Shown here piece by piece: positions 30,030 through 62,800 of a DNA stretch of 64,000 nt. This stretch comes from an uncultured bacterium (GTDB lineage Bacteria > Hydrothermota > Tepidihabitantia > SM23-42 > JAOAFX01), in the NCBI GenBank assembly GCA_964559225.1, contig CAZLGA010000002.1:11837-75836 (forward strand). The letters run 5' to 3'. The translations under genes were made by a program, and so were the position numbers. Each line of letters starts with the position of its first letter. The first letter of the stretch is position 1. Below the pieces are notes generated by a model, which had not been told where the DNA came from, ran no database searches, and saw only the letters and a list, made by a program, of their open reading frames with translations.

Positions 30030-30092
30030 AAACTTTCTTGATTTCTCACTTCCAACTTATTAAGTTATTATGGTTGTGTACAAGGAGGTAAA

Positions 30093-45227: not shown

Positions 45228-45580
45228 TTAATCAAATTTTCTGTAAGAACAGGAATGGCAAATCCATAGGTGAGATTTATAAGTGTAGCGCGATGCATCA
45301 TTTCATTCTGGGTTGCGGTTCCATCAATGACAAAGAATACTTCAAACCCCTTCATGAATGCATTCCGAGCTGTGGTCTCGCAGCACAAATTTGTCATAAC
45401 GCCAGTGACGACAACCTGCTTTGCTTTAAATTTTTTCAAAAGTTTTTCTAAATTCGTTTTGTAAAATGCATCATACTGGGTTTTTACAATTACAGGTGAG
45501 CCAGGCACATAGATTTCATCGCTCAGTTTGTAATAATCATTATCCTGTGTAATTATCTCGTCCCACCATTTCTTGAGCAT
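45224..45580 (-). CDS. Isochorismatase-family hydrolase, C-terminal part (frameshifted in an A9 run).
   Basis: VVVTGVMTNLCCETTARNAFMKGFEVFFVIDGTA is the catalytic Cys region. Confidence 0.7.
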   Translation of the reverse strand: MLKKWWDEIITQDNDYYKLSDEIYVPGSPVIVKTQYDAFYKTNLEKLLKKFKAKQVVVTGVMTNLCCETTARNAFMKGFEVFFVIDGTATQNEMMHRATLINLTYGFAIPVLTENLIK

Positions 45581-46168: not shown

Positions 46169-46252
46169 AAGAGATTATATATAAAAAAATTAGTCTGTCA
46201 ATAATACGATTTAAATCAAATGATTTCTCACCTTCTTCATTATTTACTATTT

Positions 46253-47191
46253 TTATGATATTTCAAAATCTGTTGTTACTCTATTTCTTCCATTCTGTTT
46301 ACTCTGATACATCAATTTATCTGCCCTCTTTATTATTGATTTTAGTGTATCTTTCTCTTTTATGAGGGTGGCACCAATAGAGACAGTGATATTTATAAAA
46401 TCTGAATTAACTCTTATATTGGAGAGACTGACTAAATTTTTGAATTTATGGGCAATTGTATATAATTGAGTGTCATTAACATTCGGAATAATGACAATAA
46501 ATTCTTCACCGCCCCAGCGACCTACAAGGTCAAATGAACGCGAATTTTTTATAAGAAGATTGGCGAGCATTTTAAGAACGCGGTCTCCAGTTTCATGACC
46601 ATATTTATCATTTATTGACTTGAATAAATCTATGTCAATAAACAGGAGCCCGAATTGCCAACCAAACCTTCTAAATTCGTTCAACCGTGCATGAAGTTGT
46701 ATTTCTATATATCTTCTATTAGCAATCTTTGTTAGGCTATCAATCAAAGCAAGCTTTTCAAGTTCATGGATTCTTACATTCAAATCATCTATTTCCGAGT
46801 TGTCGTAGAAGATTTCTATCGCACCAATAACATTGTGATTTTCATCAAATACAGGATATGTTTTTATTTGAACCAAAACTCTATATCCCTCGCGGTGTTT
46901 GAAATATAATTCTGTATTATAGGGATGTTTAGAATTCAAGGTTTTTAATACAGGACAAAACTCAGGATTTTCACAGCATTTCTTTCCTTCTTCATTAATA
47001 TGAATTAGTATGTCATCACCACAACTTTTTCCAATAACATCTTCTGCTTTATATCCGGTAATTTGCTCAGCTCTTGAATTCCAGTATATTATCTTTTTAT
47101 TTCGGTCTACGAAATAGACCCCCTGGTTAAGGTTTTCCAAAAGTATCTGGCAAAAATTATGACAGTCTAAATTTGATATTGATTGTGCCAT
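46253..47191 (-). CDS. Cys-rich PAS domain + GGDEF diguanylate cyclase.
   Basis: GGEEF active site. RYIEIQL...FIDIDLFKSINDKYGHETGD. PAS with C-x13-CC-x5-C (CGDDILIHINEEGKKCCENPEFC). Confidence 0.85.
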   Translation of the reverse strand: MAQSISNLDCHNFCQILLENLNQGVYFVDRNKKIIYWNSRAEQITGYKAEDVIGKSCGDDILIHINEEGKKCCENPEFCPVLKTLNSKHPYNTELYFKHREGYRVLVQIKTYPVFDENHNVIGAIEIFYDNSEIDDLNVRIHELEKLALIDSLTKIANRRYIEIQLHARLNEFRRFGWQFGLLFIDIDLFKSINDKYGHETGDRVLKMLANLLIKNSRSFDLVGRWGGEEFIVIIPNVNDTQLYTIAHKFKNLVSLSNIRVNSDFINITVSIGATLIKEKDTLKSIIKRADKLMYQSKQNGRNRVTTDFEIS

Positions 47192-47505
47192 ACAAATTTT
47201 TCTATGGGTACTCTTTGGGGCCTATTTTTTTCTGCCTCAATCTGTTTTTCAGAAAGAACCATGCTGATTTTATCTGAATGTTTGCCCACAATTACAAGGG
47301 TAATTAGTTCCATGTCACCAGGAATTTTTAAGATTTCTTTTACCTTTTGCTGATTATAACCCGCAATTGGATGGGCGACCAGTCCGAGTTCAGTTGCCCG
47401 CAATATTATTGCGGCGGTTGCCATTCCAGTATCAAATAAATAGTATTTTCTGCCATCTTTCATTATACAATCAAGTTCAGGTTTGCTAAAAACTGCAATA
47501 ATCAT
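47167..47505 (-). CDS. Nitroreductase-family protein, C-terminal ~110 aa only. It is N-terminally truncated and possibly a gene remnant.
   Basis: LFDTGMATAAIILRATELGLVAHPIAGY. The ORF begins 35 nt after the upstream gene stop, leaving no room for the ~70 missing N-terminal residues. Confidence 0.45.
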   Translation of the reverse strand: MIIAVFSKPELDCIMKDGRKYYLFDTGMATAAIILRATELGLVAHPIAGYNQQKVKEILKIPGDMELITLVIVGKHSDKISMVLSEKQIEAEKNRPQRVPIEKFVWHNQYQI

Positions 47506-47540: not shown

Positions 47541-48356
47541 CTAACCAAAGGCAACATCAAGTATCATCATAATCAAAAATCCTATGATTGTGCCGCCGGT
47601 TGCAAATTCTACATTACCGTTCCGTTGTGATTCAGGGATTACTTCTTCTACAACAACGAACAGCATGGCACCCGCCGCAAAACTCAATGCATAAGGAAGC
47701 AATAAGTGGGCATATATGACCGCAGAACATCCAATTATCGCCGCAATTGGTTCTACTACACCTGATAATTGACCAAACCAGAAACTTTTAAATCTGGAAA
47801 TTCTTTCCCGGTATAGTGATATTGAAACTGCAAATCCTTCGGGAATATTTTGAATACCTATTCCAATTATTAGCGCCAGTGCACCGGTGAAAGTTGAGTC
47901 AGGAAAACCACTGACCGCAGAGCCGATTGCAACTCCAACCGCCAGTCCTTCTGGAACATTATGGAGTGTTATGGCAAGAACTAAAAGTATACTACGGTGC
48001 CACGAAGTTTTAATTCCTTCGGATTCTGCAGTTGGAAACCCAAGATGAAGATGGGGGAGAACCATATCAACAACTCTCAGAACAATTGCACCAATTAAAA
48101 AACCAACGGTTGGAGCAAACCAGGAGAGGAAAGAATTATATGATTTAGCAATTTCTATTGCTGGAGCAAGCAGCGACCAGAAACTTGCCGCGACCATAAT
48201 TCCGCCTGCAAATCCTAACATTGTATCAAATAATTTCTGGCTGAATTCTCTTTTTAAAAAGACAAGTGCCGAGCCTAAACCAGTGAATAACCAGGTGAAG
48301 CATCCTACAATGAGAGCAATGATAACCGGATTAATCTTATTGATTAAATCGTCCAT
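47541..48356 (-). CDS. ZIP-family divalent metal (zinc) transporter, ZupT-like.
   Basis: HNVPEGLAVG and HNIPEGFAVS metal-binding motifs in a multi-TM protein. Confidence 0.85.
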   Translation of the reverse strand: MDDLINKINPVIIALIVGCFTWLFTGLGSALVFLKREFSQKLFDTMLGFAGGIMVAASFWSLLAPAIEIAKSYNSFLSWFAPTVGFLIGAIVLRVVDMVLPHLHLGFPTAESEGIKTSWHRSILLVLAITLHNVPEGLAVGVAIGSAVSGFPDSTFTGALALIIGIGIQNIPEGFAVSISLYRERISRFKSFWFGQLSGVVEPIAAIIGCSAVIYAHLLLPYALSFAAGAMLFVVVEEVIPESQRNGNVEFATGGTIIGFLIMMILDVAFG

Positions 48357-48389: not shown

Positions 48390-49094
48390 TTATCTATTTA
48401 ATTTCTTGTGGCATAACCACCAGTCAAAACATTCATATTCACCAATCTTTGCTTTTTCAATTCGTTCTTTGGCAGTTTTGACATCCTTTGCTGGTGGAAC
48501 AATCACATGGTCTTTTACAATTTCATTATTAGGCCAGTTTGCCGGCATTGCCACACCGTATTTATCTGAGATTTGCATTGCTTCAACAGCCCTCAGAATT
48601 TCATCTATATTTCTACCGAGTTCTTGAGGATAATAAAATATTATTCTAATTTTCCCCTTATCGTCAACCACAAAGACCGCTCGAACAGTATTGGTCCCCT
48701 TGCCTGGATGAATAAGACCAAGAGTTTCTGCTACTGCGCCGGTATCAGCAATGATGGGGAATTGTATTTCAACCCCTAACTTTTCTTTTATCCATTCTTC
48801 CCATTTGATGTGTGAAAAGACCTGATCAACACTGAGACCTATCAGTTCGCAATTCAATGCCTTGAATTTCTCGTACCTTTTTTGGAATGCAACAAATTCA
48901 GTGGTGCAGACTGGTGTAAAGTCCGCAGGATGGCTGAATAAAACAAACCATTTACCTGCGAACGCTTTTGGTAGCTCCAGAACACCATGTGTGGTCTGGA
49001 CTTTCATCTCTGGGAAATCATCTCCCAGAAGCGGCATCCTTTTTTCGGTTATTTTGTCCATATTACCTCCTTTTTCAATAAAATTACTCTTCAA
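48390..49094 (-). CDS. Peroxiredoxin (AhpC/TSA family, Prx6-like 1-Cys type). The true start is probably an internal Met (MDKITEK or MPLLGDD).
   Basis: FTPVCTTEF peroxidatic-Cys motif. Confidence 0.85.
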
Positions 49095-49449
49095 TTTTCT
49101 TTATTATTTGGTTGGTTTTTACTGTTAATTTTTTCTTTCCAGAAATATTACAGTATGCTTCAAAAGTGATAGTGTCATCTATTTTTGCCTCCGGAATTAT
49201 GTAAATGTATCTTTGAATCGTGTTATCTATCTGTTGAACGCTTTTCTGTTCTATTATCTGGCTATCGTTAAGTTCAATTTCGAGCTTATTGATATAATGC
49301 TTTTGTGCATCGCGAACCGGATGTTTAATTGAAACTTGTAAAATCTTGCTGGTTGTATCAAATTCAGCAACAATTTCACTCGGTGGATGGGCATAGGTGA
49401 TATTAGCTATTACTAATGTCATTATTGTAATAAGAATCAAGTGCTTCAT
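49084..49449 (-). CDS. Hypothetical secreted protein (signal peptide).
   Basis: [20 protein letters not shown]. Strong RBS aaggaggcaaaaATG. Confidence 0.5.
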
Positions 49450-49459
49450 TTTTGCCTCC

Positions 49460-49639
49460 TTAAAAATATGTCAGATAAATGACAATTAATGCGTGTATCG
49501 TTGCGAGAAGAATAGCGATAAGGGCGATGAATCTATGTATCTTTAAGGGCGCTTTAATGATTTTTAAACCTGTAAGAACTGCCAATAACACGCATATATA
49601 AGTAACAATGCCTAAAGGTTTTATTAAATCACCAATCAT
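49460..49639 (-). CDS. Unannotated 59-aa two-helix small membrane protein, just below the ORF-track length cutoff.
   Basis: Manual translation: MIGDLIKPLGIVTYICVLLAVLTGLKIIKAPLKIHRFIALIAILLATIHALIVIYLTYF*. It ends 10 nt before the next gene's RBS. Confidence 0.35.
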   Translation of the reverse strand: MIGDLIKPLGIVTYICVLLAVLTGLKIIKAPLKIHRFIALIAILLATIHALIVIYLTYF

Positions 49640-49698
49640 TGTAATTTCCCATTATTATCGTCCGAATGAATTTGGAGGCTACAATTAAAAAAGTTCTT

Positions 49699-49726
49699 CT
49701 GTAGCGTCCAACTTTAGATGGACGAG
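49699..49726. repeat. TGTAGC hairpin element copy (TGTAGCGTCCAACTTTAGATGGACG). It matches the reverse complement of the second half of the 32447 element at 24 of 25 positions.
   Basis: Seen directly. Confidence 0.55.
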
Positions 49727-49738
49727 TATTTTTTAACA

Positions 49739-50242
49739 CTACTCTCCCCAGACAATCGTTCCTTTATTTGCAAGATTATATACCTCTGCCTCAAGAATTG
49801 TCTGATGCCTCTTTTCATCCTCAGCCAGTTGTTCAAATAACTTTTTACCTTCCCGGTCTTTTATACTTTTTGCAATCTTCAAATATCTGGACATCGCCAT
49901 TTTTTCCGCCTTTATCCCGATATTCAAAACATCAATAATCTCATCCTTATTTGGTTCAAAATCTCCTGATACCTCGGGCTTTATATTTTTTGATGCCGGG
50001 GCAAAGCGCGAAAGGTCTATGGCTGTTTTACCCTTACGGGCTTCAATAATGTTATGGATATATTCGTAATGCCTTGCCTCAAATCCAGCAAGTTCTAAGA
50101 ATAGCTTTTTTCCTGCTTCACTCTGTGCCTTTCCTGCGGCATCAGTATAGAAATCCTGTGCCTTTTTTTCCGCTATTAGGGCACTTGTAAGTAGTCTGTT
50201 TATACTCGTTACTTTCCTCTTTGTTGTTTTTTTCTTTTTCAT
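49739..50242 (-). CDS. Ferritin-like / rubrerythrin-family diiron protein, with no rubredoxin domain.
   Basis: E...EARHYEY and E..EKRH paired motifs. 167 aa. Lys-rich N-terminus. Confidence 0.65.
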   Translation of the reverse strand: MKKKKTTKRKVTSINRLLTSALIAEKKAQDFYTDAAGKAQSEAGKKLFLELAGFEARHYEYIHNIIEARKGKTAIDLSRFAPASKNIKPEVSGDFEPNKDEIIDVLNIGIKAEKMAMSRYLKIAKSIKDREGKKLFEQLAEDEKRHQTILEAEVYNLANKGTIVWGE

Positions 50243-50243
50243 T

Positions 50244-50702
50244 TTACCTCCTTCCGCCTAAAAATGTTAATATTTCTTCAAAATCGGGTAATTGGGGAAT
50301 ATCATAGGTCTTCATCCAGACAACAAACTGATTTTCATCGATTATGATATTCGCCCGTTCTGAGAAACCTTCTTTTTCCCTGAATATTCCAATTTTTTGA
50401 GCATATTCACCATGGGGCCAGAAATCAGACAAAAGCCGGGTCTCTTTGACACCCATATCTTTTGCCCAGGCATGCTTTGAAGGAACCGGGTCAACACTGA
50501 TACCAAATGCTACAGTGTTTAATCTATCAAACTCGGTCTTGTATTGTTCCAGTGCCTTCATTTGTTTAGTACAGACACCGGTCCAGGCAAGGGGGTGGAA
50601 GGATAAAAGAATCTTTTTGCCTTTGAAATCAGCAAGTTTAACCTCCTGATTATGCTGGTCTTTTAGAACAAATTCAGGAATTTTATCACCAACTTTCACC
50701 AT
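50244..50702 (-). CDS. Thiol peroxidase / peroxiredoxin (Bcp/PrxQ-like redoxin).
   Basis: HPLAWTGVCTKQM. Confidence 0.8.
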   Translation of the reverse strand: MVKVGDKIPEFVLKDQHNQEVKLADFKGKKILLSFHPLAWTGVCTKQMKALEQYKTEFDRLNTVAFGISVDPVPSKHAWAKDMGVKETRLLSDFWPHGEYAQKIGIFREKEGFSERANIIIDENQFVVWMKTYDIPQLPDFEEILTFLGGRR

Positions 50703-51575
50703 TTAGCCTCCTTTATTCTCTTCAAAAAATTTTCTAACAAAATCCAATCGCTTTTCCGTATTTCTATAAATTATCGGGATTTTATCATCTTTGTAAACAT
50801 TGAGGTTCTCTTCAAATGTTGTCCTTTTTGGATTTTTGTATATTATTCCAAGTGGCATCGGGTCTTCCTCACAGGCTTTTTTAAATGCCCCATAGCGGTC
50901 AAGTGGGTTATAGGAGTTATCAAGATAATAAGTGTGTTCTCTGAACCAGGAATATGTATTAAATTTATTGAAGGTAACACAGGGTTGTAATACATCAATA
51001 AGTGCATATCCTTTATGCAAGATTGCCTGTTTTATGATTTCTTTTGTTTTCTCAACATCACCAATGAAAGTTCGTGCGACGAAGGATGCATCCAGAGCAA
51101 TCGCTATGGCGATAGGATTGAATGGTGTCACGAAGACACCATCTACCTGGACAGGTGTTTTAAATCCCATTTGGCTCGTTGGTGATGCCTGCCCTTTTGT
51201 CAATCCATACACCATATTATTGTGGACGATATTTGTAATATCTGGATTCCGTCTTATTGTATGTATGAAATGATTTCCGCCCTCTGCGTATGTACATCCA
51301 TCACCACTCACAGCAATAACAGTTAATGCCGGATTCACTGATTTGATTGCAGTTGCAGCTGAAAGGTATCTTCCGTGCAATCCATTAAAGAGATTTGTCT
51401 TTAGATAATGGGGTAGTTTTGCAGCCTGACCGATACCAGAAACGAGCACGAGTTTTGATGGTTCAATATCCAGTTCACTTAATGCTTCTTTTATCGTATT
51501 CAATATACCAAAATTACCGCAACCAGGACACCAGGCAATATCAATATCGTCAAGGGTAAATCTGTTTTTTTTCAT
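50703..51575 (-). CDS. korB: 2-oxoacid:ferredoxin oxidoreductase beta subunit (TPP-binding).
   Basis: [11 protein letters not shown]-terminal motif and the TPP-binding GDG region. Confidence 0.85.
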
Positions 51576-51580
51576 AATTA

Positions 51581-51991
51581 TTAAGCCTCCCTTATTTCTA
51601 TCATATTACCTTCAGGATCCTCAATAAAATATACCTTGCGCTCATTTCGTTTAATGGTGATGATTTTTACTTGTTTTTTTCTTAGATAATTTATGAATTG
51701 TTCCCGGTCGCTTACTGTTAATCCAAAATGGTGTAATCCGTAATGATTTTTTCTTTTCTCTACTCTATTTTTGTAATGCGGTTCAAATATTTCTAAAATA
51801 AGTTTTTCGGATTTCAGCCGGTAGAAACAGCAGGTAGAATTTGTTCTAAAAAGTTTTTTGACGATGTCGGTCTGGAGTCTTTCTCCTGAGATAAGTTTAA
51901 ATCCCAAAATATTTCTGTAAAATTTTATCAAACGCTCGGCGTTTTTCGTGAATATTCCGATATGGTCACAGGAATAAATGCTTTTATTCAT
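51581..51991 (-). CDS. Glyoxalase / VOC-family protein inserted between korA and korB.
   Basis: 136 aa. [24 protein letters not shown]...GLHHFGLTV. Confidence 0.65.
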
Positions 51992-53715
51992 ATTAACTCC
52001 TCTATTCCCTTTGTAATTTCTTCTACATAAAATGGTAATCCGTTATACTTTAAGATTAAATCTTTAATATCCACTCCAAAATTCAATTTCAAGAATTTTG
52101 CCATTTGTCCGGTCGCATTATTTTCAACCATACATAATTTTTTTGCATTGCTTAAATACTGATATGTAACTGGATGGATAGGATGGATCTGGCTGAAATA
52201 TAGCATTGCTACATCATCTGAATTTATTCTTTCGATCGCTTCTTTTACAATCTCATAATTTGAGCCCCAGCACATCACGAGTAGTTTATAATTTTTCGAC
52301 CCGATGAATTCAGGTTCAACCAAATCAGCGCTTATCACCCTATATTTATTCAACAATTTATTCATCATCTTAGTGCGTAGACTGAGGTCTTCAGAAATGT
52401 GTCCTTCTTCATCATGGTGATGGCAGTCCGCTATGACCAGGCCTTTACCGTAACCTGGTATTCCCCGTGGCGATATTCCAGATTCCGTAAGTATATACCG
52501 CTTATAATCCTCTGTTGTTTCAATTATATAATTTTCAATCTTTATATCCTCTACATTGAAAGGGATGACACTATATGAAGAATCAATAAAATATTGGTCA
52601 GTAAGTATGAAGACAGGAATCTGATATTTATCTGCAAGATTGAATGCCTTTTGAGTCAGGTAAAAACCCTGTTCAAAGTTGCCTGGAGCAAAGATGATGC
52701 GGGGAAATTCACCATGTCCGGCATACAAAGCGAGCTGGAGGTCTGCCTGCTCTGTTCTTGTTGGTAATCCTGTAGCAGGTCCTGGTCGCTGGGCAAGGTG
52801 AATTACCATTGGGGTTTCTTGTATTGCTGCCAAACTCAATCCTTCGGTCATCAAATCAAAACCTCCACCCGAGGTGGTGACCAAGGCACGGGCACCTGTG
52901 TAGGAACCACCAATGCCCATATTCATTGCTGATATTTCATCTTCAGCCTGTTCGGTTATTATGTCTAAATCTTTTCCAACCTGAGCAAGATATGTCCAGA
53001 CACCACTTGAGGGTGTCATTGGATAGGCAGCAATGAATTTTACTCCGCCTGCTATCGCACCTAATGCAATCGCTGCTGAACCGTCAATAATTTTCTCTTT
53101 AAACACATCCTTGCTCGATGGAGAGGCAAAATTTATCAATTTTGGTCCTTTGACCTCTTCAGCCTTTTCAAATCCCAATTTTGCTGCCTGAATATTTTTT
53201 TCTACTATTGTCCCACCTTTAGCAACAAAATGAGTTTTGATAAGGTTTGCAAGGTTATCAAAGGAAATATTCATTAGACCAACAAGGAGACCGACTGCAA
53301 TGGTATTAGCAAAAAGCGGATTTCCAAGCTCCTTTGCCATTTTCAGATAAGGAATATAATAATATGAATTGTAACCACTGATTGGAAATTCACTCAAAAT
53401 CAATGTGTCTTTAGAGATATTATCTTTATTGTGTTCCAATGCCTTATCTGTCAGTGGAATTAAAACATCAATTTTTTTAAGAGGTGCCCGTGTTCTCTTA
53501 TTACTAATTCTTATTTGCACTGAATTCATACCCCCACGAATACGGGACATAAATTCAGTCCAGATGAATGCATAATAACCAGATGACTGGGCTACTTTTA
53601 ATGTAATATCACCAACAGCATTTATGCCCTGTCCAGCCTCACCGGAAATAACTATTGAGATGTCAGAGTTCGTCATAATATCAGAACTTCTTGAACTTGC
53701 TATTCGGTGCACCAC
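51988..53715 (-). CDS. korA: 2-oxoacid:ferredoxin oxidoreductase alpha subunit (fused gamma-alpha type).
   Basis: 575 aa. The N-terminal gamma-like domain (ISGEAGQGINAVG) is followed by the pyruvate-flavodoxin/ferredoxin oxidoreductase core. Confidence 0.85.
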   Translation of the reverse strand: MVHRIASSRSSDIMTNSDISIVISGEAGQGINAVGDITLKVAQSSGYYAFIWTEFMSRIRGGMNSVQIRISNKRTRAPLKKIDVLIPLTDKALEHNKDNISKDTLILSEFPISGYNSYYYIPYLKMAKELGNPLFANTIAVGLLVGLMNISFDNLANLIKTHFVAKGGTIVEKNIQAAKLGFEKAEEVKGPKLINFASPSSKDVFKEKIIDGSAAIALGAIAGGVKFIAAYPMTPSSGVWTYLAQVGKDLDIITEQAEDEISAMNMGIGGSYTGARALVTTSGGGFDLMTEGLSLAAIQETPMVIHLAQRPGPATGLPTRTEQADLQLALYAGHGEFPRIIFAPGNFEQGFYLTQKAFNLADKYQIPVFILTDQYFIDSSYSVIPFNVEDIKIENYIIETTEDYKRYILTESGISPRGIPGYGKGLVIADCHHHDEEGHISEDLSLRTKMMNKLLNKYRVISADLVEPEFIGSKNYKLLVMCWGSNYEIVKEAIERINSDDVAMLYFSQIHPIHPVTYQYLSNAKKLCMVENNATGQMAKFLKLNFGVDIKDLILKYNGLPFYVEEITKGIEELI

Positions 53716-54184
53716 ATACCGGACAGTATTCAGGCGGTTTGCCGATGTGTGTAAATCCGCAGATAGGGCAGATGTAGATTTCTTTAATATCTATGTCTTT
53801 GCCTTTTTCTGCAGTTGCCTTTGCGTCAGCATACATTCTCATATGGATTTTTTCTGCTTCCAGAGCGTAATGGGTTGATTGCTCGGCGCCTTTTTCGTTT
53901 TGAAATTTGGCAGTATTATTAAATACCGGATACATCTCCTCTACTTCGTAGGTCTCGCCATCAATACCGGTCTGGAGATTATCGGGTGTCTTTTTTATTA
54001 TTCCTAAATTGCGTGCATGATTTGTTGCATGGACCTGCTCGGCATAGGCAATTGCTTTGAAAAGGCGCGCTATATTCGTTAGTCCTTCTTTTTCAGCAAT
54101 TTCGCTGAAGATTAAATATTTCATATGTGCCATTGACTCTCCTGCAAATGCCTCAAGCAATGCTTTTTCGGTCATTTTCTTCAT
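53681..54184 (-). CDS. rbr: Rubrerythrin (diiron domain + C-terminal rubredoxin-like Cys4).
   Basis: C-terminal CPICGFTH...CPVCGAPNSKF. N-terminal ferritin-like helices with E..H pairs. Confidence 0.88.
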   Translation of the reverse strand: MKKMTEKALLEAFAGESMAHMKYLIFSEIAEKEGLTNIARLFKAIAYAEQVHATNHARNLGIIKKTPDNLQTGIDGETYEVEEMYPVFNNTAKFQNEKGAEQSTHYALEAEKIHMRMYADAKATAEKGKDIDIKEIYICPICGFTHIGKPPEYCPVCGAPNSKFKKF

Positions 54185-54266
54185 TTTAGCCTCCTTTCAC
54201 CCTCACCTTAATCCTCTCCCTTCAAAGAATAGGGCAAGGGTCCAAGATTGACTTCTACTCTATGAA

Positions 54267-54293
54267 TTGTAGCATCCAGATTTATCTGGATGC
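54267..54293. repeat. TGTAGC hairpin element copy (TGTAGCATCCAGAtttaTCTGGATGC), 24/25 identical to the first half of the 32447 element. A partial CGTCCAG unit follows at ~54303.
   Basis: Seen directly; perfect palindrome. Confidence 0.6.
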
Positions 54294-54368
54294 TTAAATA
54301 GTTCGTCCAGTTAAAACTGAACACTGCATTAATTGTTCTGCTGATTAATGCGGAAAACTGCAGAGAAT

Positions 54369-54785
54369 CTATTCAACTTTTATCTCCTGTGAATTCTGCC
54401 ATAAACCATGGATGTTGCAGTAGGAGAATGCGACAATGGTGCCTGGTTTCTCGGTCTTGAATGTAAATACTGCTTCAGGATGTGTATAAACCGTGCTCGT
54501 ATTTGGACCATTGGTTGATGCCCCATGTGCCAGAAATTCAAATTTGCCTATCTGATAGGGAAATTTTTCTCCATCAGGATAAAAGTAGACATCAATCCAT
54601 GAGATATGGTGTTCTGTTGTATTTGGATGGGCAATCTCCTTGCCAACGCAGACCGTAACTTTAAAATTTTCACCTTTTTTTACCTTTGCCGGTGCTTCAA
54701 TCACCGGAACATGTTTTTCTTTTTTCCAGTCTGCAGACTGGAAGATTATATTAAGGTCTTTCATAATTGCTCCTTTCTTAACCAT
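54369..54785 (-). CDS. Superoxide reductase, 1Fe neelaredoxin type. The likely true start is the second Met at 54764.
   Basis: ADWKKEKHVPVIE...HPNTTEHHISWIDVYF...SYCNIHGLW. Nearly collinear with archaeal 1Fe-SOR. Confidence 0.88.
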   Translation of the reverse strand: MVKKGAIMKDLNIIFQSADWKKEKHVPVIEAPAKVKKGENFKVTVCVGKEIAHPNTTEHHISWIDVYFYPDGEKFPYQIGKFEFLAHGASTNGPNTSTVYTHPEAVFTFKTEKPGTIVAFSYCNIHGLWQNSQEIKVE

Positions 54786-54909
54786 TTATTGTAGCATCCA
54801 TTCCTGATTTTCATCAACATTACCACATATTTCGCACTTAAATATTTGACCGACACTGGTCACATTTGCCATATTACCTCCTTGAGATTATCTATTTATA
54901 TGCATCATT

Positions 54910-56136
54910 TTAGTCTAACAGCCTTTTTTCGCCTTCAATCTTTTTTATATTGGTTATATCCTGGGTTACCTCAAGACATCCCAGGTATTCACATTTAACA
55001 TTCCGGACTGGAAAATAGCGGATGTAAATCAATCTTCCTTTTAGATTTATCCAGAATTCTGCAACATCCCTTTTATTGTTCCTGAAATCATTCAAAATCT
55101 GTTCTACCCTGTGGACACTCTCCTTAGGATGACATAACTGGACTTTGCGCCCAATAACTGCTTTTGTCCTTGGAAAGATGCGCTCCTTTGACTGGCTGAA
55201 ATACCTCACTTTATCCTCTTTATCAACAAATGTGATATCAACAGGCAGTGTATTGAGCAGGGTCTCAAGTTCTTCTTTAGAAAAACTTCCGGTATCAAAT
55301 GCTATTTCCCTTTCAGCGGGTATGGATTCCGGCGAGATTTGCTCTGTTTTCGCAAAAACCTTCATTGTTGGTTCAGGAGTAAAGCAACAGTAGCCTATTT
55401 CATCAAATTGCTCTCTAATTTCTGTCCATTCATTTTTGTCAATTACCTTCAATGCAGTTGGAAAAAGAATATTATTTTCTTTGTAAAAATGGTTTGAAAG
55501 CATTTCAATCAGTGATATTGATATCTCATTCAGTGTTTTAGTAAAGTCGAGAAACTCAAGGGATTGCATATCCTCTACAATTTCGTAGAGTTTTTTTTCA
55601 ATCTTCCTGATCTCGTTATGCTCTGACCACATTATTGCTGGTGGTTGGGTAATTCCGTGTTTTTCAAGGAACGGAAAAAGCACATTCTCCTCGCGAAGAT
55701 AATGACTTTCTGATTCCTTAAAGTGTGAAATCAGATGTTCTAACTCTTCTATTTCTTTATCTATTGATGAAAAACCTTTAGCCTTGCTAATTTTTGACGA
55801 AGTTTTTTTTAGTCCATCAGCGAACTCAAGAAGCTTTTTATGCTCCTCCATAAGAATATGAATGGGATGTCCTTGTTCTCCTAAAGATTTTTCCTGGTTT
55901 AAGGATTCTTTAAATAGTGCAATGTGCACATCACAGAGTTTTTGAATCTCATCCCTTGATATTCCTTCATTTATAAGTTCTTCTTCTATTTGCGTGATGT
56001 CTGCTGGTCCTACATCCTTTAAAAAATCTCTAAATTCCTTTTTTAGTTCATCCAGCGGCATCCCTTTATGGAGTTGTTTTATAATCTCCTTTAATTTGTG
56101 CTTTTTATTTTTTTCTCCACCGAATGCTTCAGTCAT
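54910..56136 (-). CDS. Hemerythrin-like (HHE cation-binding) / DUF438 / C-terminal PAS domain protein. A candidate O2/NO or iron sensor.
   Basis: Multiple H/E-rich helical repeats (ELINEGISRDEI..CDVHIALF...MWSEHNEIRK). C-terminal PAS-like segment (VDITFVDKEDKVRYFS...GRKVQLCHP). Confidence 0.65.
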   Translation of the reverse strand: MTEAFGGEKNKKHKLKEIIKQLHKGMPLDELKKEFRDFLKDVGPADITQIEEELINEGISRDEIQKLCDVHIALFKESLNQEKSLGEQGHPIHILMEEHKKLLEFADGLKKTSSKISKAKGFSSIDKEIEELEHLISHFKESESHYLREENVLFPFLEKHGITQPPAIMWSEHNEIRKIEKKLYEIVEDMQSLEFLDFTKTLNEISISLIEMLSNHFYKENNILFPTALKVIDKNEWTEIREQFDEIGYCCFTPEPTMKVFAKTEQISPESIPAEREIAFDTGSFSKEELETLLNTLPVDITFVDKEDKVRYFSQSKERIFPRTKAVIGRKVQLCHPKESVHRVEQILNDFRNNKRDVAEFWINLKGRLIYIRYFPVRNVKCEYLGCLEVTQDITNIKKIEGEKRLLD

Positions 56137-56141
56137 TTTTT

Positions 56142-56576
56142 CTACTCCTTTTTTGAACAGTCTTTGCAGATGCCAATTAAATAACCACAGACTTCATTGA
56201 TTTTATGACCAGCAATGGTTTTTTTGCTTGATAGCGCAAGCGGACATTTAATCATGATATCATAGACCTTACCGCATTTTTTACAGAGCAGATGGTGGTG
56301 GTTTTCAATCTGTGGGTCATATCGTGTCTCTTCTCCAGTAATAGTTAGGGCATTTACCATACCCTTTTTCCGCAAAGCGTTGATTGTATTATAGACCGTG
56401 GTTATTGAAATTACCGGAAGACTTTTGTGTAGGTAATTATATATCATCTCAACTGTAGGATGTTTGTACCGAAATTTGTTCATCAAACAATCCACAACAC
56501 AAATTCGCTGATATGTGGCTTTGAGTCCTGACTGTTCTAACATTTTTCTAATATCTTGGGTTCGTATTTTTTTCAT
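56142..56576 (-). CDS. Fur-family transcriptional regulator (probably PerR-type peroxide sensor given context).
   Basis: TYQRICVVDCL...HHHLLCKKCGKVYDI...CGYLIGICKDC. Fur fold with structural CxxC pairs. Confidence 0.8.
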   Translation of the reverse strand: MKKIRTQDIRKMLEQSGLKATYQRICVVDCLMNKFRYKHPTVEMIYNYLHKSLPVISITTVYNTINALRKKGMVNALTITGEETRYDPQIENHHHLLCKKCGKVYDIMIKCPLALSSKKTIAGHKINEVCGYLIGICKDCSKKE

Positions 56577-56604
56577 TTTTCACCTTGAGGCTATACTCCA
56601 TTTA

Positions 56605-57117
56605 TCAAATAAATCGTTCAAACCTTTCTTTTTTTGCCTTGCAGATAGGGCAGACTTCAGGTGGAACCAGGCGAGCACACAGATAACCACAGACCCTACA
56701 TCGCCAGACCGGAAAGGGGAGAGGTGCAGATATTTCCCTTACCGAGGAAATACTATTTTTTCTTTGTTCTGCAGGCGGTCTCCTTTCTGGTATAGATTGA
56801 AGTTCCATTTCACCCTTCATAACCCTTTCTGAGACATATAGTCCACAATAACAGGCACCATATTCTATAATATCATCATCCCGATAATCACAAGGGCAGA
56901 TTATATCAAGGTCATCTGCTTTTTCACCCGATGCCAACCTGCATGGGCATGCCTGATAACCATACCTTTTTTGGTTTATTATCAATGATTTTACAAGTTG
57001 CTTTGTGAACTCAACATCTGGATTCAGATGATAACCACCCTCTTCTGATTCTTTTTTCAGTTTCTCGTAAAGTTTTTGAATTTCTGCATCGGTAATAATA
57101 TTTATATTATCTCGCAT
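56605..57117 (-). CDS. Ferredoxin:thioredoxin-reductase catalytic-subunit-like domain fused to a C-terminal rubredoxin-like domain.
   Basis: [22 protein letters not shown]...GACYCG is the FTR CPC..CPC..C(H/Y)C pattern. Then WRCRVCGY...CPICKA is a rubredoxin Cys4. Confidence 0.75.
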
Positions 57118-57214
57118 TTAAGCCACCCATTATTCGGGAGTTAAGCCGTAAGGCTTTTATTGTAGAATTCATACGAATTAACTTTAGAAAACCTTCTTTG
57201 AAATTCAAAAAATA

Positions 57215-57496
57215 TCACTGCAATAAATCCTTTATTTCCTTTTCTTTAAATCCCACGATACATTTCTCGTTATTAAATACTATTGTTGGAAAAGAGCAGG
57301 CTGGGTTCCATTTCTCTACCTCTTTTTTTATCTTCCCTTTATCATCGCCGTTTAGCAAATCTACATAGATATAGTCAAATTCTACACCAAGTTTTTCTAA
57401 CAATTCTTTTGTTTTTTTACACCAGATACAGGTGCTCAATGCATAGAGCATAATTTTGCCTTTATTTATGCCCGGAACATGTTTGATTTCAACCAT
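57215..57496 (-). CDS. Glutaredoxin-like / NrdH-like small thioredoxin-fold protein.
   Basis: LYALSTCIWCKKTKELLEKLGVEF gives a CxxC in a thioredoxin fold. 93 aa. Confidence 0.75.
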   Translation of the reverse strand: MVEIKHVPGINKGKIMLYALSTCIWCKKTKELLEKLGVEFDYIYVDLLNGDDKGKIKKEVEKWNPACSFPTIVFNNEKCIVGFKEKEIKDLLQ

Positions 57497-57554
57497 TGGT
57501 CACCCCTGTAGAATTCCGGGGCAGGGTAAAATACTTCTGCCCCGGAACCATTGG

Positions 57555-57995
57555 TTAAATTTCCTCCAGCAGACTGGAAAAGGTGTCGTGATGTTCCTCT
57601 TCATCAGTAAGTATAGATTCAAACAATTTTCTCGTGACCTCATCACCTTCTTTGCGGGCGATTTCAATGATCTGTTTATATAATTTAATTGCACCCTCTT
57701 CATCCTTTTTATCCTGCTCAATCATCTCTTTTAATGTATTGCCAACATTTATCGGTTCGGGTTTGGTTGTTGGTTTGCCTCCGAGATAGTTTAAACGTTC
57801 AGCAATCGCCTCGGCGTGTTTCATTTCGGTGATTGCAATTTTCTTTAATTCATCTTTCACTGCAAATCCCTTTACACCTACCCACTGAACATGCTGCCAC
57901 ATATACTGAATGGCAACCTGTAGTTCACGCGCAATCGCACTGTTAAGTGCTTCCAGCAGTTCTTTTGATGCCATACATACCTCCTTTTTTAGCAT
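57555..57995 (-). CDS. Bacterioferritin-like ferritin-fold protein.
   Basis: LNSAIARELQVAIQYMWQH resembles the Bfr N-terminus LN..L..EL.AINQY. E..H motifs (EMKHAE; EEEHHD). Confidence 0.7.
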   Translation of the reverse strand: MLKKEVCMASKELLEALNSAIARELQVAIQYMWQHVQWVGVKGFAVKDELKKIAITEMKHAEAIAERLNYLGGKPTTKPEPINVGNTLKEMIEQDKKDEEGAIKLYKQIIEIARKEGDEVTRKLFESILTDEEEHHDTFSSLLEEI

Positions 57996-58048: not shown

Positions 58049-58063
58049 TTATAATCATTATAA
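58049..58063. promoter_or_regulatory. PerR/Fur-box-like 7-1-7 inverted repeat TTATAATcATTATAA upstream of the bfr-like gene, which is the first gene of the long ROS-defence transcription unit.
   Basis: Plus strand cTTATAATCATTATAAtc at 58048-58065, ~55 nt upstream of the minus-strand ATG at 57995. It matches the Bacillus-type PerR box consensus TTATAATNATTATAA. Confidence 0.55.
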
Positions 58064-58410
58064 TCATTTTTTAGACAATGTCAAGGGGGAAGATGTTTAG
58101 TCAAATAGTCATAAGGGGTGGTTTGATGGTTATCAATGGAGTAGGGATTTTTATCCTGGAACTAAAGCATATCCTAAAGAAGGTCAGGGTCACTATTCCA
58201 GAGGAATCAGGGGTCAATCTTTTAGCCAGGAGCAGGAACTCTGATTTTCATTAGGGCAGGATTTAGTTTCATAAAAATTGTAAGTTGTTTAACTAAAGTC
58301 GTTTTTTTCTATAGGAACAGGTTCCGGCTATCGCTCCGCAGACCAGGAAATACAACCATAATACCTGTGTAGCTATTTTGTAATATACGGTTTTAACCAA
58401 ACGAAATAGC

Positions 58411-59772
58411 TTACCTCACAATCAGCAGTCTCTTTGTTTCCCTTTCCATTTTGCCATCAAGGATTAAAAAATAAACCCCAGAGCTGAGCTTGGTAGTATT
58501 GATGTTAAGAGAAAAAATTCCAGCGTCAACAATTCTATTAGCAATAACTAAGACTTCTCGCCCAACAATGTCATAAAGTTTCAGGGTAATTCTCTGTTTT
58601 TCAGGAATGTTGTATTGAATTTGAACATTATTCCTGATAACATTTGGCAAAACCATCAACTTTAACCGTTCACATTCTGCTTCTAACCTTTTATCCTCTT
58701 CAATTCCCACTATTGTGCCGTAGATGTAATGGATTTCGCGGATGGTGTTGGGAGCGTTATATGCTATTCTCGACACATGGATTGTGCCATCATGGTCAAT
58801 ACGAAGGGCACCGGGAGATTGGCAGTCGAAAGGGGGATTTATAGACGGTAAAGTTACTCTTTGCCATACATTAGGTTCTTTTCTGTAAGCCACAAAATTA
58901 CTATATAGTATCCAAGGGCGGCCTAATCCATCTATATCCATTGCTTTCGGAGTTCCGATCACTGCAGGAGAATCCACATGCTCAATATTCCAGGATACAC
59001 CATTGTAGTAATAATATTTCAACCAATCTCTGCCATCTTCTGAAACAACGTGAAGTATGTTATCAGAACCTGCACGAATAGACGTTGGACTACTAACTAA
59101 GAAGAACATATCATCTACCTGTTCTGAGAACATGTTGCCCCCTATCTTATATGAATGAAATAAACCCTCTGGCGGAAATAGTTCCTGGCGTATCCAACTT
59201 ATGTGAGGTTGATTGGAAGAATCACAGTCAATAGAACAGCAGTACTCAAAAGTGTATTTACTAGAAGGGACTGTATCAAAGAGCCATTGATTTAATATCT
59301 TGTAGCCATAGAGGCCAGCCTTGTCGTTCGGCAGTTCATCTACACGTTTAGTGTAAGTAATATGAGGATTATTCCCCTTATCAATGGCGATTGCTTTCCA
59401 TAGGAAATCTATGTTTAGGCCAGAATCTACGGTGTCTTTTACCCACCCAAATCCATCTTTCCTGGCCACAATCAAATAGTATTTTGAAGCGAGAGTATTA
59501 TAAACTCTATAAATAGTCCACGGACAATTATTATAATCAATTGTTAAATCTAGTGGAGTGTGACTATAAATTTCACTCGCGCACGTATCAATGGTATCAC
59601 ATATCCAAAGTGCACCAATTTTAGAATATAATGCGAGTAATGAAGTATCATATACTGCAAGTATGTGGGGATTACCTGATGAATCAATTGCAAGTGTAGG
59701 GCGAACGAGAATGGTGGTTGGGGTAACTATTTCCATAGTCCATGAGGTAAATAATAAATAAATTATTAGCAT
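58411..59772 (-). CDS. T9SS type-A sorting-domain cargo protein. The start is reassigned to Met22 of the track ORF (RBS ggaggatatcttATG).
   Basis: Signal MLIIYLLFTSWTMEIV. C-terminal KLYDIVGREVLVIANRIVDAGIFSLNINTTKLSSGVYFLIL is a Por-secretion tail. Confidence 0.75.
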   Translation of the reverse strand: MLIIYLLFTSWTMEIVTPTTILVRPTLAIDSSGNPHILAVYDTSLLALYSKIGALWICDTIDTCASEIYSHTPLDLTIDYNNCPWTIYRVYNTLASKYYLIVARKDGFGWVKDTVDSGLNIDFLWKAIAIDKGNNPHITYTKRVDELPNDKAGLYGYKILNQWLFDTVPSSKYTFEYCCSIDCDSSNQPHISWIRQELFPPEGLFHSYKIGGNMFSEQVDDMFFLVSSPTSIRAGSDNILHVVSEDGRDWLKYYYYNGVSWNIEHVDSPAVIGTPKAMDIDGLGRPWILYSNFVAYRKEPNVWQRVTLPSINPPFDCQSPGALRIDHDGTIHVSRIAYNAPNTIREIHYIYGTIVGIEEDKRLEAECERLKLMVLPNVIRNNVQIQYNIPEKQRITLKLYDIVGREVLVIANRIVDAGIFSLNINTTKLSSGVYFLILDGKMERETKRLLIVR

Positions 59773-59838
59773 AAGATATCCTCCTCGCCTTTGTCTCCTG
59801 TTGTGCAAACAGGAGACAAAGGAATCAACCATCAAGCG

Positions 59839-62800
59839 TTATTTTATTGTTATGATTTTCTGGGTTTTTGTTTCTTTTTCACCAGTGAACACGAGGAAGT
59901 AGACACCGGCACTGAAATTTGTAGAATTAAAGTTGTAGGAGTAAATACCGGATTCAACAATGCCTTCGGCAATCGTTACGACTTTACGACCGAGAACATC
60001 ATAAACATTCAAGCTAATATACTGTTTTGCAGGCGTAGAATAATGGATTTGAGCATTACGATTGAGAATATTAGGAAGAACTTTAAGACTGAATTCAAAA
60101 TTTAATGGAATACTCATAATCGTTTGTGGTCCACCTTGCCCTTCTTTTTCAAACCCATAGAGATTTCCTTTATGTAGTGAGGCAAAATTTCCACGGATTT
60201 TTGGTATTCTGACAATAATTTCACCATCATTCATATAAGATGCAGGTGGCACCGGCACCTCAACAGTTTTCGGATTACCTCCATCATATTTTATCAAATG
60301 TTTGGCAGTATTATCCACCTCCACCCATTCCCGCCACTCACCATCACCCTCATGATAGGCAGTTATATCAAACCGATATTTCAAGTGAGGATTCAATCCA
60401 GTGAATTTGTAGATTAACTCTGTTGTATCATAATCAACTGGATAATTTTCGTAAGGAATGTATCCATCCCTCTGGATTAAGTAAGGTGATGGGATTTCGC
60501 TACCCGCATAAATCGTATATGCCGGAATTGGTAACACTAAGGGGAATATCTCCGTCTTAGTTTTAATGCCGAAGATATAAGGATCAGGTTCATATTCATA
60601 TTTTTCAGTAAAAGCAGAATAGAGATAAACATTATTCAAGGTCTGACGCCAATCACAAGAAGAATAAAGAGATTGGGTGTAAGGTGTATTACTTAAATTC
60701 CCAGAACCATAAATAGACGATTTGTAGAGGACTTCCCAGTTCTGTTTCAGTTCAATAAATTGATGCTCGCACCAGACAAGGAATTCGCCGTTTGCTGTGA
60801 TAACCGGCCAATCCGATGCCTGATTTGGTGTTACGACCTCGGGCCAAATGTTCCAGGTATTGGGCGGCGCAGTTATCAGCCGTTCACCTCTATAAATGTC
60901 GCGACTTTCTGTATTACCCGGTTCCTCTTCTTCGCTCCATACTACAAGAACTTTTTCATTCGTTGTATAAATAAATGGATGTTCGCTCGGCTTATCATAG
61001 GAGTTAGAAATATTTATCTTTTCACTCCACCCGGTTTCTTCCAAGCATTTATGCCAGATTTCAGGATATGGTTCACTAGCCTCAGGTGGGAAGTCCCAAA
61101 CAAAGTGTGGGTAACCATAATAAGTCGCAATGCAGGGTGAGGAAGGTTGCCAATCTAAAGGCACATCCGCTGAATCAATAATTACAGTTTCGGTTGATGG
61201 ATTGAAGGCATCAAAGCGTTTGTAGATAACATATGCCTTGCCCGGGGCATAGAGCACACCAGAATAGACCAGATGGCAGATGTCATTTGCATCAATAACA
61301 ATGCTGGGCGGCGATACGCTGGGTGTGAATGTAGGTATAACAGGATAAGAATCAATCGTATAGACTATCCAGTTTGGCTCATCATAACGGGCAAAATAGA
61401 TGACAGCGGATTGTTCGGTCATCCAGCCTACGGATTTTCTAAATGCTATGCAGGGACGATTGTCACTGGTTATATCTATACTTGGATTATGATTATATCC
61501 CATTGGCAAAACCGAGACCCCTGAAGACCAGGCAGAACCGCCATCCGTAGAGAAAGAATAATTTGCCCATTCCTTTGGTATATCAGCACCGCCTATACCA
61601 TAAGTATACGCCAGATGCAGATTCTCTGCATTAAATTGACGTACCAATTTTCTGCCTTCAGTATATTGAGTGTGCGCGGTTGGAAAGTCAACCACATATT
61701 CAAAGACCCGGACATCATCTTGATAGGGAATATGATTACTCACCGTAACGGTCACTTTCATCATGCCGGTTGTGGGAACGGTAAGATTATTAAAGATAAC
61801 TAATCCACTGGCATCGGTTCTCTTTGATTCTGCCAGATAACCTTCAGGTTCTTTATAAAGGGTAACGAGCGCATTAACCAGCGGTCCATTTACATCCTGA
61901 ATATAGACCTGAAAATCAATTGGTGTATTTGCCGGAATAGCGTCTATATGCTCAACAATAAGGTCTAATGGAATTTCGGTCCACACAGGCATTTCCGGTG
62001 AGCCGAAGAGGTTGTGGCTATAGGCTACATACCAGCCTTGCCATCCCCATGGCTCAGAAGAATATCTTGCCTTTGCTTCAGCAATTCCTAAGAGTGTATC
62101 ATAATAGAATACCCGTTTGATGAAGTTTTGATGTAAGTAAAAAGAATTCCAGTATAACCCCCATCGTGTATTGCCTAAAAACGCAACAGCATTAAAGGGT
62201 GGGTATCCGTTTGGAGAAGGCCCTGGCCAACGATAAAAAGACGCAAAGGCTTCGGCTATGCAGGGATAAGGGCCGTTGGCTGTCCAAGGGTAACAAGGAC
62301 CGTCAAGATAAGTGCTTGTGTCAAAGCAGGCATTCTCACAGCCCACAGAATAGGCAACATAGAATTTGTTGATATTGCGCGGTTCACCCAAATAAGGCAA
62401 ATTATTTCTTTCCCAGGAGTAAAAGTGTCTTCCATCCGCAACTCTTGCCCTTTGAGCCTCGGGAGAACCATGTCCATAGGTTGAGAGAATTCCATATCCC
62501 TTGCTCAATGTATCGGTCATCAATCTATGATCACCTTCATTGCAGGGATGGTCTATGACACGCCGTTGTGTAAACTGAGGTGGAAAGCATCGAATAGCAT
62601 CCTCCATAAGGGATATAAAACTATTACCACTTTGAGTAATCCAGAGTGACTGTGTCATAGAGTCTCTATTTGCTGGCGCCCTTTCGTAGACTAATCGCTT
62701 CTCAACCCAGGAAATAGATTGTTCTAAATCCCAGGCAGGAACACGACCAATCCAGATTTCTTCATAATAGTCTGCTATATCATTATTAGGTTCACCGAAC

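Follow-up and report, generated by a model that had tools for sequence, protein, structure and literature searches.

A predicted PerR-controlled oxidative-stress island of an uncultured anaerobe carries a variant 2-oxoacid oxidoreductase that may supply reductant to defence enzymes

How obligate anaerobes fund the reductive detoxification of O2, superoxide and peroxide, while oxygen inactivates their low-potential metabolism, is an open problem. Rubrerythrins, superoxide reductases (SORs) and peroxiredoxins (Prx) are reductive detoxifiers, and the characterised routes that feed them carry electrons from NAD(P)H via NADH:rubredoxin oxidoreductase (NROR), AhpF or TrxB. The problem is raised anew by a block of genes in a 64,000-nt stretch of DNA from an uncultured bacterium (assembly GCA_964559225.1, contig CAZLGA010000002.1; hereafter the window, to which all statements on absent carriers and reductases apply). 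There, the korA and korB genes of a 2-oxoacid:ferredoxin oxidoreductase (OFOR) lie among genes for defence against oxygen and reactive oxygen species (ROS). A first-pass annotation had described the block as a self-contained defence island in which Kor could be the dedicated source of reductant. Our analysis describes it as a PerR-controlled oxidative-stress island of an anaerobe, probably of candidate division WOR-3, its regulation being predicted from sequence, and we lean, modestly, towards the embedded Kor being an oxidant-tolerant reductant source for the defence enzymes. This Kor is a variant enzyme, and its altered iron-sulfur site is described first.

KorA (51988..53676; all island genes are on the minus strand) is an OFOR alpha subunit with fused domains III, I and II (TIGR03710, 615 bits, above cut-off), and KorB (50703..51575) is the beta subunit, with a thiamine pyrophosphate (TPP) site and a single Fe-S site (NF008821, 463 bits, above cut-off). 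The alpha subunit comprises the POR (domain III) and POR_N domains and the beta subunit TPP_enzyme_C and PFO_beta_C; no ferredoxin (delta) domain is present. The PDB structures closest to KorA were 5B48, 6N2N and 5B46, and both subunits were closest to the (alpha-beta)2 OFORs of Sulfolobus tokodaii (StOFOR; 5B46/5B48) and Magnetococcus (6N2N). Enzymes of this class contain a single [4Fe-4S] cluster and have been described as comparatively O2-tolerant and as known only from aerobes (PMC5020499); the midpoint potential reported for StOFOR1 is -545 mV. When KorB was aligned with the beta subunit of StOFOR, the segment VSGIGC46SGK of the latter fell on VSGIGQAAK, so that the third cluster cysteine, present in all four solved homologues (5B46, 5B48, 6N2N and 8YS5), is Gln50 in the window protein. 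KorB keeps the cluster cysteines C16, C19 and C199 only, and the four-cysteine pattern of CxGC, GIGC and QPC is incomplete.

This substitution is shared by a whole group of relatives. Cysteine is the majority residue at window positions 16, 19, 50 and 199 (CCC.C) among 84 full-length representatives of the family, in which the relatives of the window protein have glutamine at position 50. The GIGQ motif was present in the 120 closest KorB homologues without exception, and in 80/80 metagenome loci fetched with a profile of the clade. In a neighbour-joining tree, an unrooted bipartition placed 13 of the 14 GIGQ sequences together with no Cys-type sequence among them, only P0263 falling outside; the unrooted criterion was used because a rooted test of monophyly failed under midpoint rooting. 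CxGC, the TPP/Mg motif GDG and QPC are invariant in the GIGQ clade, and since the rest of the active-site architecture is thus unchanged, the Fe-S centre is probably retained with three cysteine ligands. No compensating conserved cysteine was found in KorB, where a Cys follows GDG in only 38% of the clade, and no cysteine of KorA is conserved across both the GIGQ clade and the window protein. With one of the four cluster cysteines missing from KorB, ordinary electron transfer from Kor to ferredoxin is not to be assumed. No description of a Cys-to-Gln OFOR clade was found in the literature searched; PerR islands, the methanoredoxin/FDR system described below and two-subunit OFORs are each known, and the GIGQ clade is apparently undescribed.

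GIGQ Kor genes recur beside ROS-defence genes in at least five phyla (WOR-3, Zixibacteria, Planctomycetota, Thermoplasmatota and ANME archaea). Among loci anchored on FDR, the ferredoxin-dependent disulfide reductase of the island, GIGQ-type KorAB was found in the WOR-3 islands L003, L004 and L008, in L037 and in L071. The Thermoplasmatota locus (L037) has the order Prx-Bfr-Rbr-SOR-KorA-KorB...Grx-FDR, all on one strand, and the ANME Methanocomedens locus (L071) the order Grx-FDR-KorA-KorB, both with GIGQ-type KorB. In Sedimentisphaerales (L083) the order is Prx-ODP-Dfx-Rbr-flavin reductase/rubredoxin-G6PD-Rbr-NiSOD-KorA-KorB. G6PD lies within the same kind of island in L083 and in L087, indicating that reductant-supply genes do get recruited to such islands. 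A Zixibacteria locus (L084, 5800..13306) reads KorA-VOC-KorB-TusA-DsrE-cysteine desulfurase-Prx-Grx-FDR-DUF302, and the P0138 contig has the same order with NifU added after the cysteine desulfurase. It was observed that these last two loci tie the variant Kor to genes of Fe-S cluster and sulfur trafficking besides those of peroxide defence.

The association was also counted. In 71 metagenome loci, the open reading frames (ORFs) around GIGQ KorAB, taken as two upstream and one downstream, numbered 144; the most frequent Pfam family among them was Rubrerythrin (18/144), followed by AhpC-TSA, Sod_Ni and Nitroreductase (6 each), Ferritin_2/EncFtn (4/144) and PMSR, methionine sulfoxide reductase (2/144). 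With a fixed tblastn query set, ROS genes numbered 1.31 per 10 kb up to 3 kb from KorAB and 0.50 per 10 kb at distances above 5 kb in these loci (p = 0.004). FDR loci devoid of Kor (1.0 Mb) had 0.17 per 10 kb, and the density near Kor is about 8-fold higher than this last value. This recurrence supports, by comparative genomics, Kor as a functional member of the defence island. No OFOR was found in the literature searched as a recurrent member of PerR or ROS-defence clusters. A widespread and conserved OFOR clade with an altered Fe-S site, residing in defence clusters, points to an electron supply line different from those characterised, and the SGIGQ motif of KorB could serve as a sequence marker for annotating aerotolerance potential in uncultured anaerobes.

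The control of the island was examined at its head. The regulator (56142..56576, PF01475) is a PerR-like protein of the Fur family, whose best PDB match was B. subtilis PerR (2FE3, E 1e-20). Aligned with 2FE3 (KHPT, YDP, HHH, CKKC, VYDI and CKDC), it conserves all the metal-site residues and the four zinc cysteines. We take positions H37, D85, H91, H93 and D104 to be the regulatory metal site of PerR, with Asp at 104 where Fur has Glu, and the Zn(Cys)4 site to be structural. Known PerR regulons have a TTATAAT-N-ATTATAA operator over the promoter and control rubrerythrin, SOR or desulfoferrodoxin, peroxiredoxin, an iron-storage protein and a metal transporter. A consensus scan detected a sigma-70-type promoter at the head of the island (58057..58084, minus strand; TTGACA-16-TATAAT, 12/12 match), and a PerR box, TTATAATCATTATAA (58049..58063, no strand assigned), overlaps its -10 hexamer. 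The consensus operator TTATAATNATTATAA (7-1-7) has its single perfect match in the window at this site, whereas we estimate that about 0.005 perfect boxes would be expected by chance at the base composition of the window. In the relative L004 the Bfr gene is preceded by the same perfect box, and in L003 and L008 a box with one mismatch stands directly before perR, which is followed by SOR (L003), rbr and korAB. These observations, with the domain identities, uphold the description of a co-directional block of oxygen and ROS defence. Five nucleotides after perR starts a gene for a DUF438-hemerythrin-PAS_10 protein (54910..56136; Pfam), a candidate sensor of O2 or iron as judged from its domains.

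The thiol branch of the island is the part with the best characterised counterparts. The glutaredoxin (Grx)-like protein (57215..57496, CIWC motif) matched 5CAX (4.8e-34) and 3NZN (8e-34) in the PDB, its STCIWCKKTK aligning with STCVWCKKTK at the C-x-W-C site, and is a methanoredoxin orthologue closely similar to the proteins of M. acetivorans and M. mazei. The next gene (56605..57117) encodes a ferredoxin:thioredoxin reductase (FTR) catalytic domain (PF02943, 4e-22) followed by a C-terminal rubredoxin domain (PF21349, 9e-14), and its product matches FDR of Methanosarcina acetivorans (4TPU) over the full length (residues 9-170, E 1.7e-64). It has the features of the FDR class, that is, an FTRc domain with seven cysteines in CPC...CPC...C(Y/H)C, the source of the [4Fe-4S] cluster and of the redox-active disulfide in this class, and a C-terminal rubredoxin with two CxxC pairs; the motifs C57PC59, C74PC76 and C89YC91 and the rubredoxin cysteines were invariant in the family alignment (A1). 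The tyrosine of CYC, in place of the FTR histidine, is reportedly the hallmark of FDR, and the rubredoxin domain is said to be the input relay to the active-site cluster. Of 80 loci with FDR, drawn from GTDB species genomes of many bacterial and archaeal phyla, 75 have the redoxin gene directly upstream of it, which makes methanoredoxin-FDR a conserved two-gene module. On sequence homology to 5CAX and 4TPU, the pair is the known methanoredoxin/FDR system. This system has been biochemically characterised and receives its electrons from ferredoxin (PMC7278568, PMC6262447); FDR reduces methanoredoxin and a thioredoxin, as established elsewhere. The proposal that an FTR domain would pass electrons from ferredoxin to thiol-disulfide proteins is in line with this homology. 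The accompanying idea that the fused rubredoxin domain serves as an outlet to SOR and rubrerythrin was not supported, since rubrerythrin (53681..54184; PF02915, 1e-22) carries a rubredoxin domain of its own (PF21349, 1e-9) and the role reported for that of FDR is input.

The peroxiredoxin encoded next to korB (50244..50702; AhpC/TSA family by Pfam, BCP/Tpx-like) contains a single cysteine in its whole sequence. An external thiol must therefore reduce it, a task suited to a protein of the Grx type; we infer that methanoredoxin fills this role. The methanoredoxin/FDR pair thereby gains a candidate physiological role, the recycling of peroxiredoxin, together with a candidate upstream source of electrons. 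In some FDR homologues of about 211-220 aa (P0003, P0008 and P0047, within the FDR loci L003..L082), two tandem C-terminal rubredoxin domains were observed instead of one. Ferriperoxin was considered as a precedent and dropped, being dependent on FNR and NADPH rather than on ferredoxin.

By homology, Bfr serves to sequester iron and SOR to reduce superoxide, and peroxide is reduced by rubrerythrin, a further diiron protein and the two peroxiredoxins. These functions could be joined as follows. O2 or peroxide stress would inactivate PerR and the island would be expressed; the variant Kor, being oxidant-tolerant, would continue to oxidise a 2-oxoacid with CoA under stress; its electrons would reach rubrerythrin, SOR and FDR, via a ferredoxin encoded elsewhere or directly at rubredoxin-type centres; and FDR would reduce methanoredoxin, by which the peroxiredoxins would be recycled. 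Kor would then have a role similar to that of zwf, which supplies NADPH in the SoxRS regulon of E. coli, at the level of ferredoxin and rubredoxin. The earlier suggestion that Kor is the reductant source of the island is thus strengthened, and the first-pass annotation as a whole is partly supported: functional membership is supported by recurrence, but standard reduction of ferredoxin is not assumable with Gln50.

Several observations weigh against Kor being a reductant source for a single PerR-controlled unit. In a scan of all ORFs of at least 40 aa for ferredoxin or rubredoxin motifs, only Hdr-type proteins matched, and neither carrier was found as a free protein in the island or elsewhere in the window. 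With the small desulforedoxin ORF also decayed (see below), the island is not self-contained, contrary to what had been proposed. Ferredoxin is rare among the neighbours of Kor elsewhere (3/144 flanking ORFs). Of the loci anchored on either Kor or FDR, only about 5-10% have the two side by side, which makes FDR one of several partners and not an obligate one. Loss of the cluster ligand might signify that electron transfer is impaired or altered, and not that the enzyme is tolerant. The interior of the island contains no PerR box with two mismatches or fewer. Finally, five junctions are wider than the others (58, 97, 124, 184 and 99 nt), and gaps of 58-184 nt, two of which contain hairpins, allow separate transcription units. 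From the sequence, one long transcript and several units are both possible; no canonical terminator was found on the coding strand of the island. A three-mismatch PerR-like site at 54945 was unconvincing as an internal box, and no conserved operator was found in the SOR-rbr spacer, since the four spacers compared (window, L003, L004, L008) could not be aligned and contained only unrelated hairpins.

What else Kor could be doing beside these genes was considered. It could be an oxidant-resistant replacement isozyme, comparable to fumarase C or aconitase A, which would keep carbon flowing to acyl-CoA and ATP when the O2-labile pyruvate or 2-oxoglutarate:ferredoxin oxidoreductase (PFOR/OGOR) is inactivated, the supply of reductant being incidental; we regard this as possible, though somewhat unlikely. 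Two-subunit OFORs are reported to be comparatively O2-tolerant and to occur in aerobes (PMC5020499), the Zixibacteria Kor genes precede genes for Fe-S repair and sulfur trafficking and for an ADP-forming acyl-CoA synthetase, and Kor stands beside FDR in a minority of loci only; the window moreover encodes an oxidant-sensitive class I fumarase, which makes the replacement of labile enzymes relevant to this organism. However, the tightest and commonest neighbours of Kor are electron-consuming peroxidases and SORs, with rbr directly upstream and Prx directly downstream at 0 nt, and not genes of carbon metabolism. The two roles are compatible with each other, and sequence alone cannot separate them. 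It is very improbable that Kor is an ordinary housekeeping OFOR placed among defence genes by chance, or by a shared strand or level of expression. OFOR genes are indeed common and multi-copy in anaerobes, and about a quarter to a half of the well-flanked GIGQ loci have no recognisable defence neighbour, but the adjacency recurs in the five or more phyla listed above with different gene orders, ROS genes are about 8-fold denser near Kor than in the background, Rubrerythrin (18/144) ranks first among the neighbour families, and the gene spacing suggests translational coupling of Kor to rbr and prx.

The altered cluster site admits two further readings. A three-cysteine KorAB might not reduce ferredoxin at all and instead carry out cluster-independent or modified chemistry, either non-oxidative decarboxylation or, with the VOC protein, decarboxylation that consumes O2 or peroxide, Kor itself then being a scavenging or detoxifying enzyme. 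The cluster ligand is lost throughout the clade with no compensating conserved cysteine in KorB or KorA, StOFOR1 is capable of cluster-independent non-oxidative decarboxylation (PMC5020499), and a VOC-fold protein stands between the subunit genes in several phyla. This possibility appears quite improbable, because the clade keeps its three remaining cluster cysteines, the GDG motif for TPP/Mg and the overall architecture invariant, which argues for a retained Fe-S centre and electron transfer, and the VOC insertion is missing in most members of the clade. The VOC fold does include O2-using enzymes of 2-oxoacids. More speculatively, and in our opinion unlikely, the GIGQ OFOR would be a "2-oxoacid:rubredoxin oxidoreductase", in which a three-cysteine, [3Fe-4S] or otherwise atypical cluster, oxidant-stable and of higher potential, feeds rubredoxin-type centres, and VOC is a third subunit in some lineages. 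It would hand electrons directly to fusions of flavin reductase with rubredoxin, to rubrerythrins lacking rubredoxin, or to the rubredoxin domains that FDR and rubrerythrin carry. If true, this route would give anaerobes a supply line for reductive detoxification of O2 and ROS using neither ferredoxin nor NAD(P)H. We retain Kor as an oxidant-tolerant reductant source for the defence enzymes as the reading towards which we lean.

The VOC/glyoxalase-fold gene (51581..51991, PF00903) overlaps korA by 4 nt and is separated from korB by 5 nt. The KorA-VOC-KorB order was also found in L003, L004, L084 (Zixibacteria), L085 and the P0138 contig. A VOC-Prx-ferritin-like trio occurs devoid of Kor after FDR or SOR in TA06 (L020) and L051, which makes VOC also a part of the defence context. 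No solved homologue of the VOC protein was found by sequence, and its NCBIfam matches were all far below cut-offs. The window contains a second case of an unrelated small gene between the genes for enzyme subunits, since at 28794..30650 (plus strand) the genes for the two subunits (alpha and beta) of a class I (Fe-S) fumarase are split by one for a 119-aa "23S rRNA-intervening sequence protein" (PF05635).

No canonical TrxB or NROR is encoded within the 64-kb window, where an adjacent system of this kind would have spoken against the proposal of the first-pass annotation. The protein encoded at 44343..45227 (minus strand) was rejected as a canonical TrxB, its TIGR01292 score being 146 bits against a cut-off of 343 and the CxxC motif being absent: SYCSTCDG of 3CTY aligned with FYEVVNLK, and the HRR motif for NADPH is also missing. 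This flavoprotein may be a TrxR-like ferredoxin/flavodoxin:NAD(P)+ oxidoreductase, providing a second route between pyridine nucleotides and FeS carriers; it resembles a class cited in PMC5020499, the ferredoxin:NADP+ reductases of the TrxR-like kind. Its gene adjoins an isochorismatase fragment (45224..45580, minus strand), of which only Pfam positions 62-174 of 175 were matched and which looks like a truncated remnant. An Hdr-like cluster lies at 6188..15384 (plus strand). Its products are HdrC-like and HdrB-like (CCG) proteins, a pair of HdrA-like flavo-iron-sulfur proteins of 1017 aa each and two proteins of the MvhD (FlpD) family. The cluster may represent a module for flavin-based electron bifurcation, by which this organism could produce or consume reduced ferredoxin in another way.

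The SOR core is encoded at 54369..54764, in a frame open to 54785 (PF01880, 6e-35; TIGR00332). Its likely start is MKDLN, preceded by a good ribosome-binding site. The motifs EKHVP, HP..EHHI and CNIHG are present, and the protein is a 1Fe-SOR (neelaredoxin-type) with His4Cys ligands and no intact desulforedoxin (Dx) domain. Directly upstream of SOR and in frame with it, a decayed desulforedoxin remnant of 28 codons (54786..54872, minus strand), MANVTSVGQIFKCEICGNVDENQEWMLQ, ends in an in-frame stop; it has kept KCEICGN and lost the CC pair. The previous assignment as 1Fe-SOR was thus right in that no functional desulforedoxin domain is present, but had overlooked this remnant. Related loci form a series: the 2Fe-SOR of L037 is a fusion, in L051 an intact Dx ORF stands apart from SOR, the window and L002 have a remnant, and L003 and L004 have nothing.

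Two ORFs between the ferritin-like gene and the second peroxiredoxin gene had also been overlooked. A 59-aa membrane protein with two helices, containing histidine (49460..49639, kept in L003 and L004), is always paired with the gene for a 121-aa exported protein (49084..49449) that has HPP, HP, HYI and CNISG motifs. The AlphaFold2 model of the latter (pLDDT 81) had Foldseek matches to superoxide reductases and SoxYZ (E 2e-4 to 5e-3). The last iron-ligand histidine of SOR is replaced by serine, comparison of profiles with SOR gave a weak match (E 0.027) confined to the C-terminal motif, and a profile search of PDB sequences gave no match. Seven homologues were found, of which those named are from WOR-3, with a more distant one between Dfx and KorA in L098. 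On the basis of the model, the 121-aa protein may be an extracytoplasmic SOR-like metalloprotein.

The other genes of the island complete the block. The Bfr-like protein (146 aa; 57555..57995; PF00210, 3e-34) is encoded at its head, a rubrerythrin/ferritin-like diiron protein that lacks a rubredoxin domain (49739..50242; PF02915, 7e-16) follows the korB-adjacent prx gene, and a peroxiredoxin of the Prx6/archaeal type with a 1-cysPrx_C domain (48390..49061; Pfam; NF009668, 372 bits, above cut-off) and a ZIP-family metal transporter (47541..48356, PF02535) are encoded towards the end. The core rbr-korA-voc-korB-prx-ferritin-like is tightly packed, with intergenic gaps of -4 to +5 nt: korA starts 4 nt past the stop codon of rbr, the gap from korB to prx is 0 nt, and perR and the hemerythrin-PAS gene are likewise only 5 nt apart. 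All the genes previously listed were recovered on the minus strand, each with a Pfam or NCBIfam family match that is significant; the ZIP gene lies outside the limit of 48390 given for the block. The nearest homologues of several proteins, at 75-82% identity, bear the name candidate division WOR-3, on which the probable assignment to this division is based, and the entire island is syntenic in the WOR-3 relatives L003, L004 and L008.

A C-terminal fragment of a nitroreductase (47167..47505; Pfam) and a gene for a PAS-GGDEF diguanylate cyclase (46253..47191; Pfam) are probably the tail of the co-directional block, down to 46253; the next perfect promoter on the same strand is at 46201..46174. 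In the nitroreductase only the C-terminal Pfam part was matched (positions 110-167 of 167), and it looks like a truncated remnant; intact nitroreductase genes recur beside GIGQ KorAB elsewhere (6/144 flanking ORFs). Directly upstream of the island (58411..63840, minus strand) are the genes for two large secreted proteins with C-terminal sorting domains of type IX secretion, one of which is a 1333-aa C25 (gingipain-like) peptidase. Elsewhere in the window, a 1049-aa protein (32591..35740, plus strand) has a methyl-accepting chemotaxis protein (MCP) signalling domain at residues 392-523 and, C-terminal to it, a solute-binding domain of family 5 (627-967), an unusual order for a chemoreceptor; cheW, response regulator, cheA and cheC/X genes follow.

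The island can be compared with known systems part by part. The PerR regulon of Clostridium acetobutylicum, the perR-rbr clusters of Desulfovibrio and the PerR regulon of B. subtilis are alike in type of regulator, operator and gene set. In those systems electrons come from NAD(P)H via NROR, AhpF or TrxB, whereas the window has no such reductase and its island carries instead an embedded 2-oxoacid oxidoreductase and a ferredoxin-dependent disulfide reductase. With FDR and methanoredoxin of M. acetivorans, the island pair has in common the CPC/CPC/CYC motifs, Tyr for the His of FTR, the C-terminal rubredoxin and a C-x-W-C redoxin; here, however, the host is a bacterium, the genes are adjacent, and they lie in a PerR island with peroxiredoxins nearby. 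With StOFOR1/2 and the Magnetococcus OGOR, Kor shares two subunits (beta being domain VI), the absence of an internal ferredoxin domain, CxGC and the TPP motif GDG. It differs in that Cys46 of StOFOR beta is Gln throughout the GIGQ clade, the hosts of which are anaerobes, in the context of ROS-defence genes and in the VOC gene inserted in a sub-lineage. Finally, zwf, fumC and acnA of the E. coli SoxRS regulon are generally known instances of a reductant supplier, or of oxidant-resistant isozymes, recruited into a stress regulon, as Kor may have been here; the enzymes differ, and the reductant is NADPH in E. coli, whereas low-potential iron-sulfur carriers would take its place in this island.

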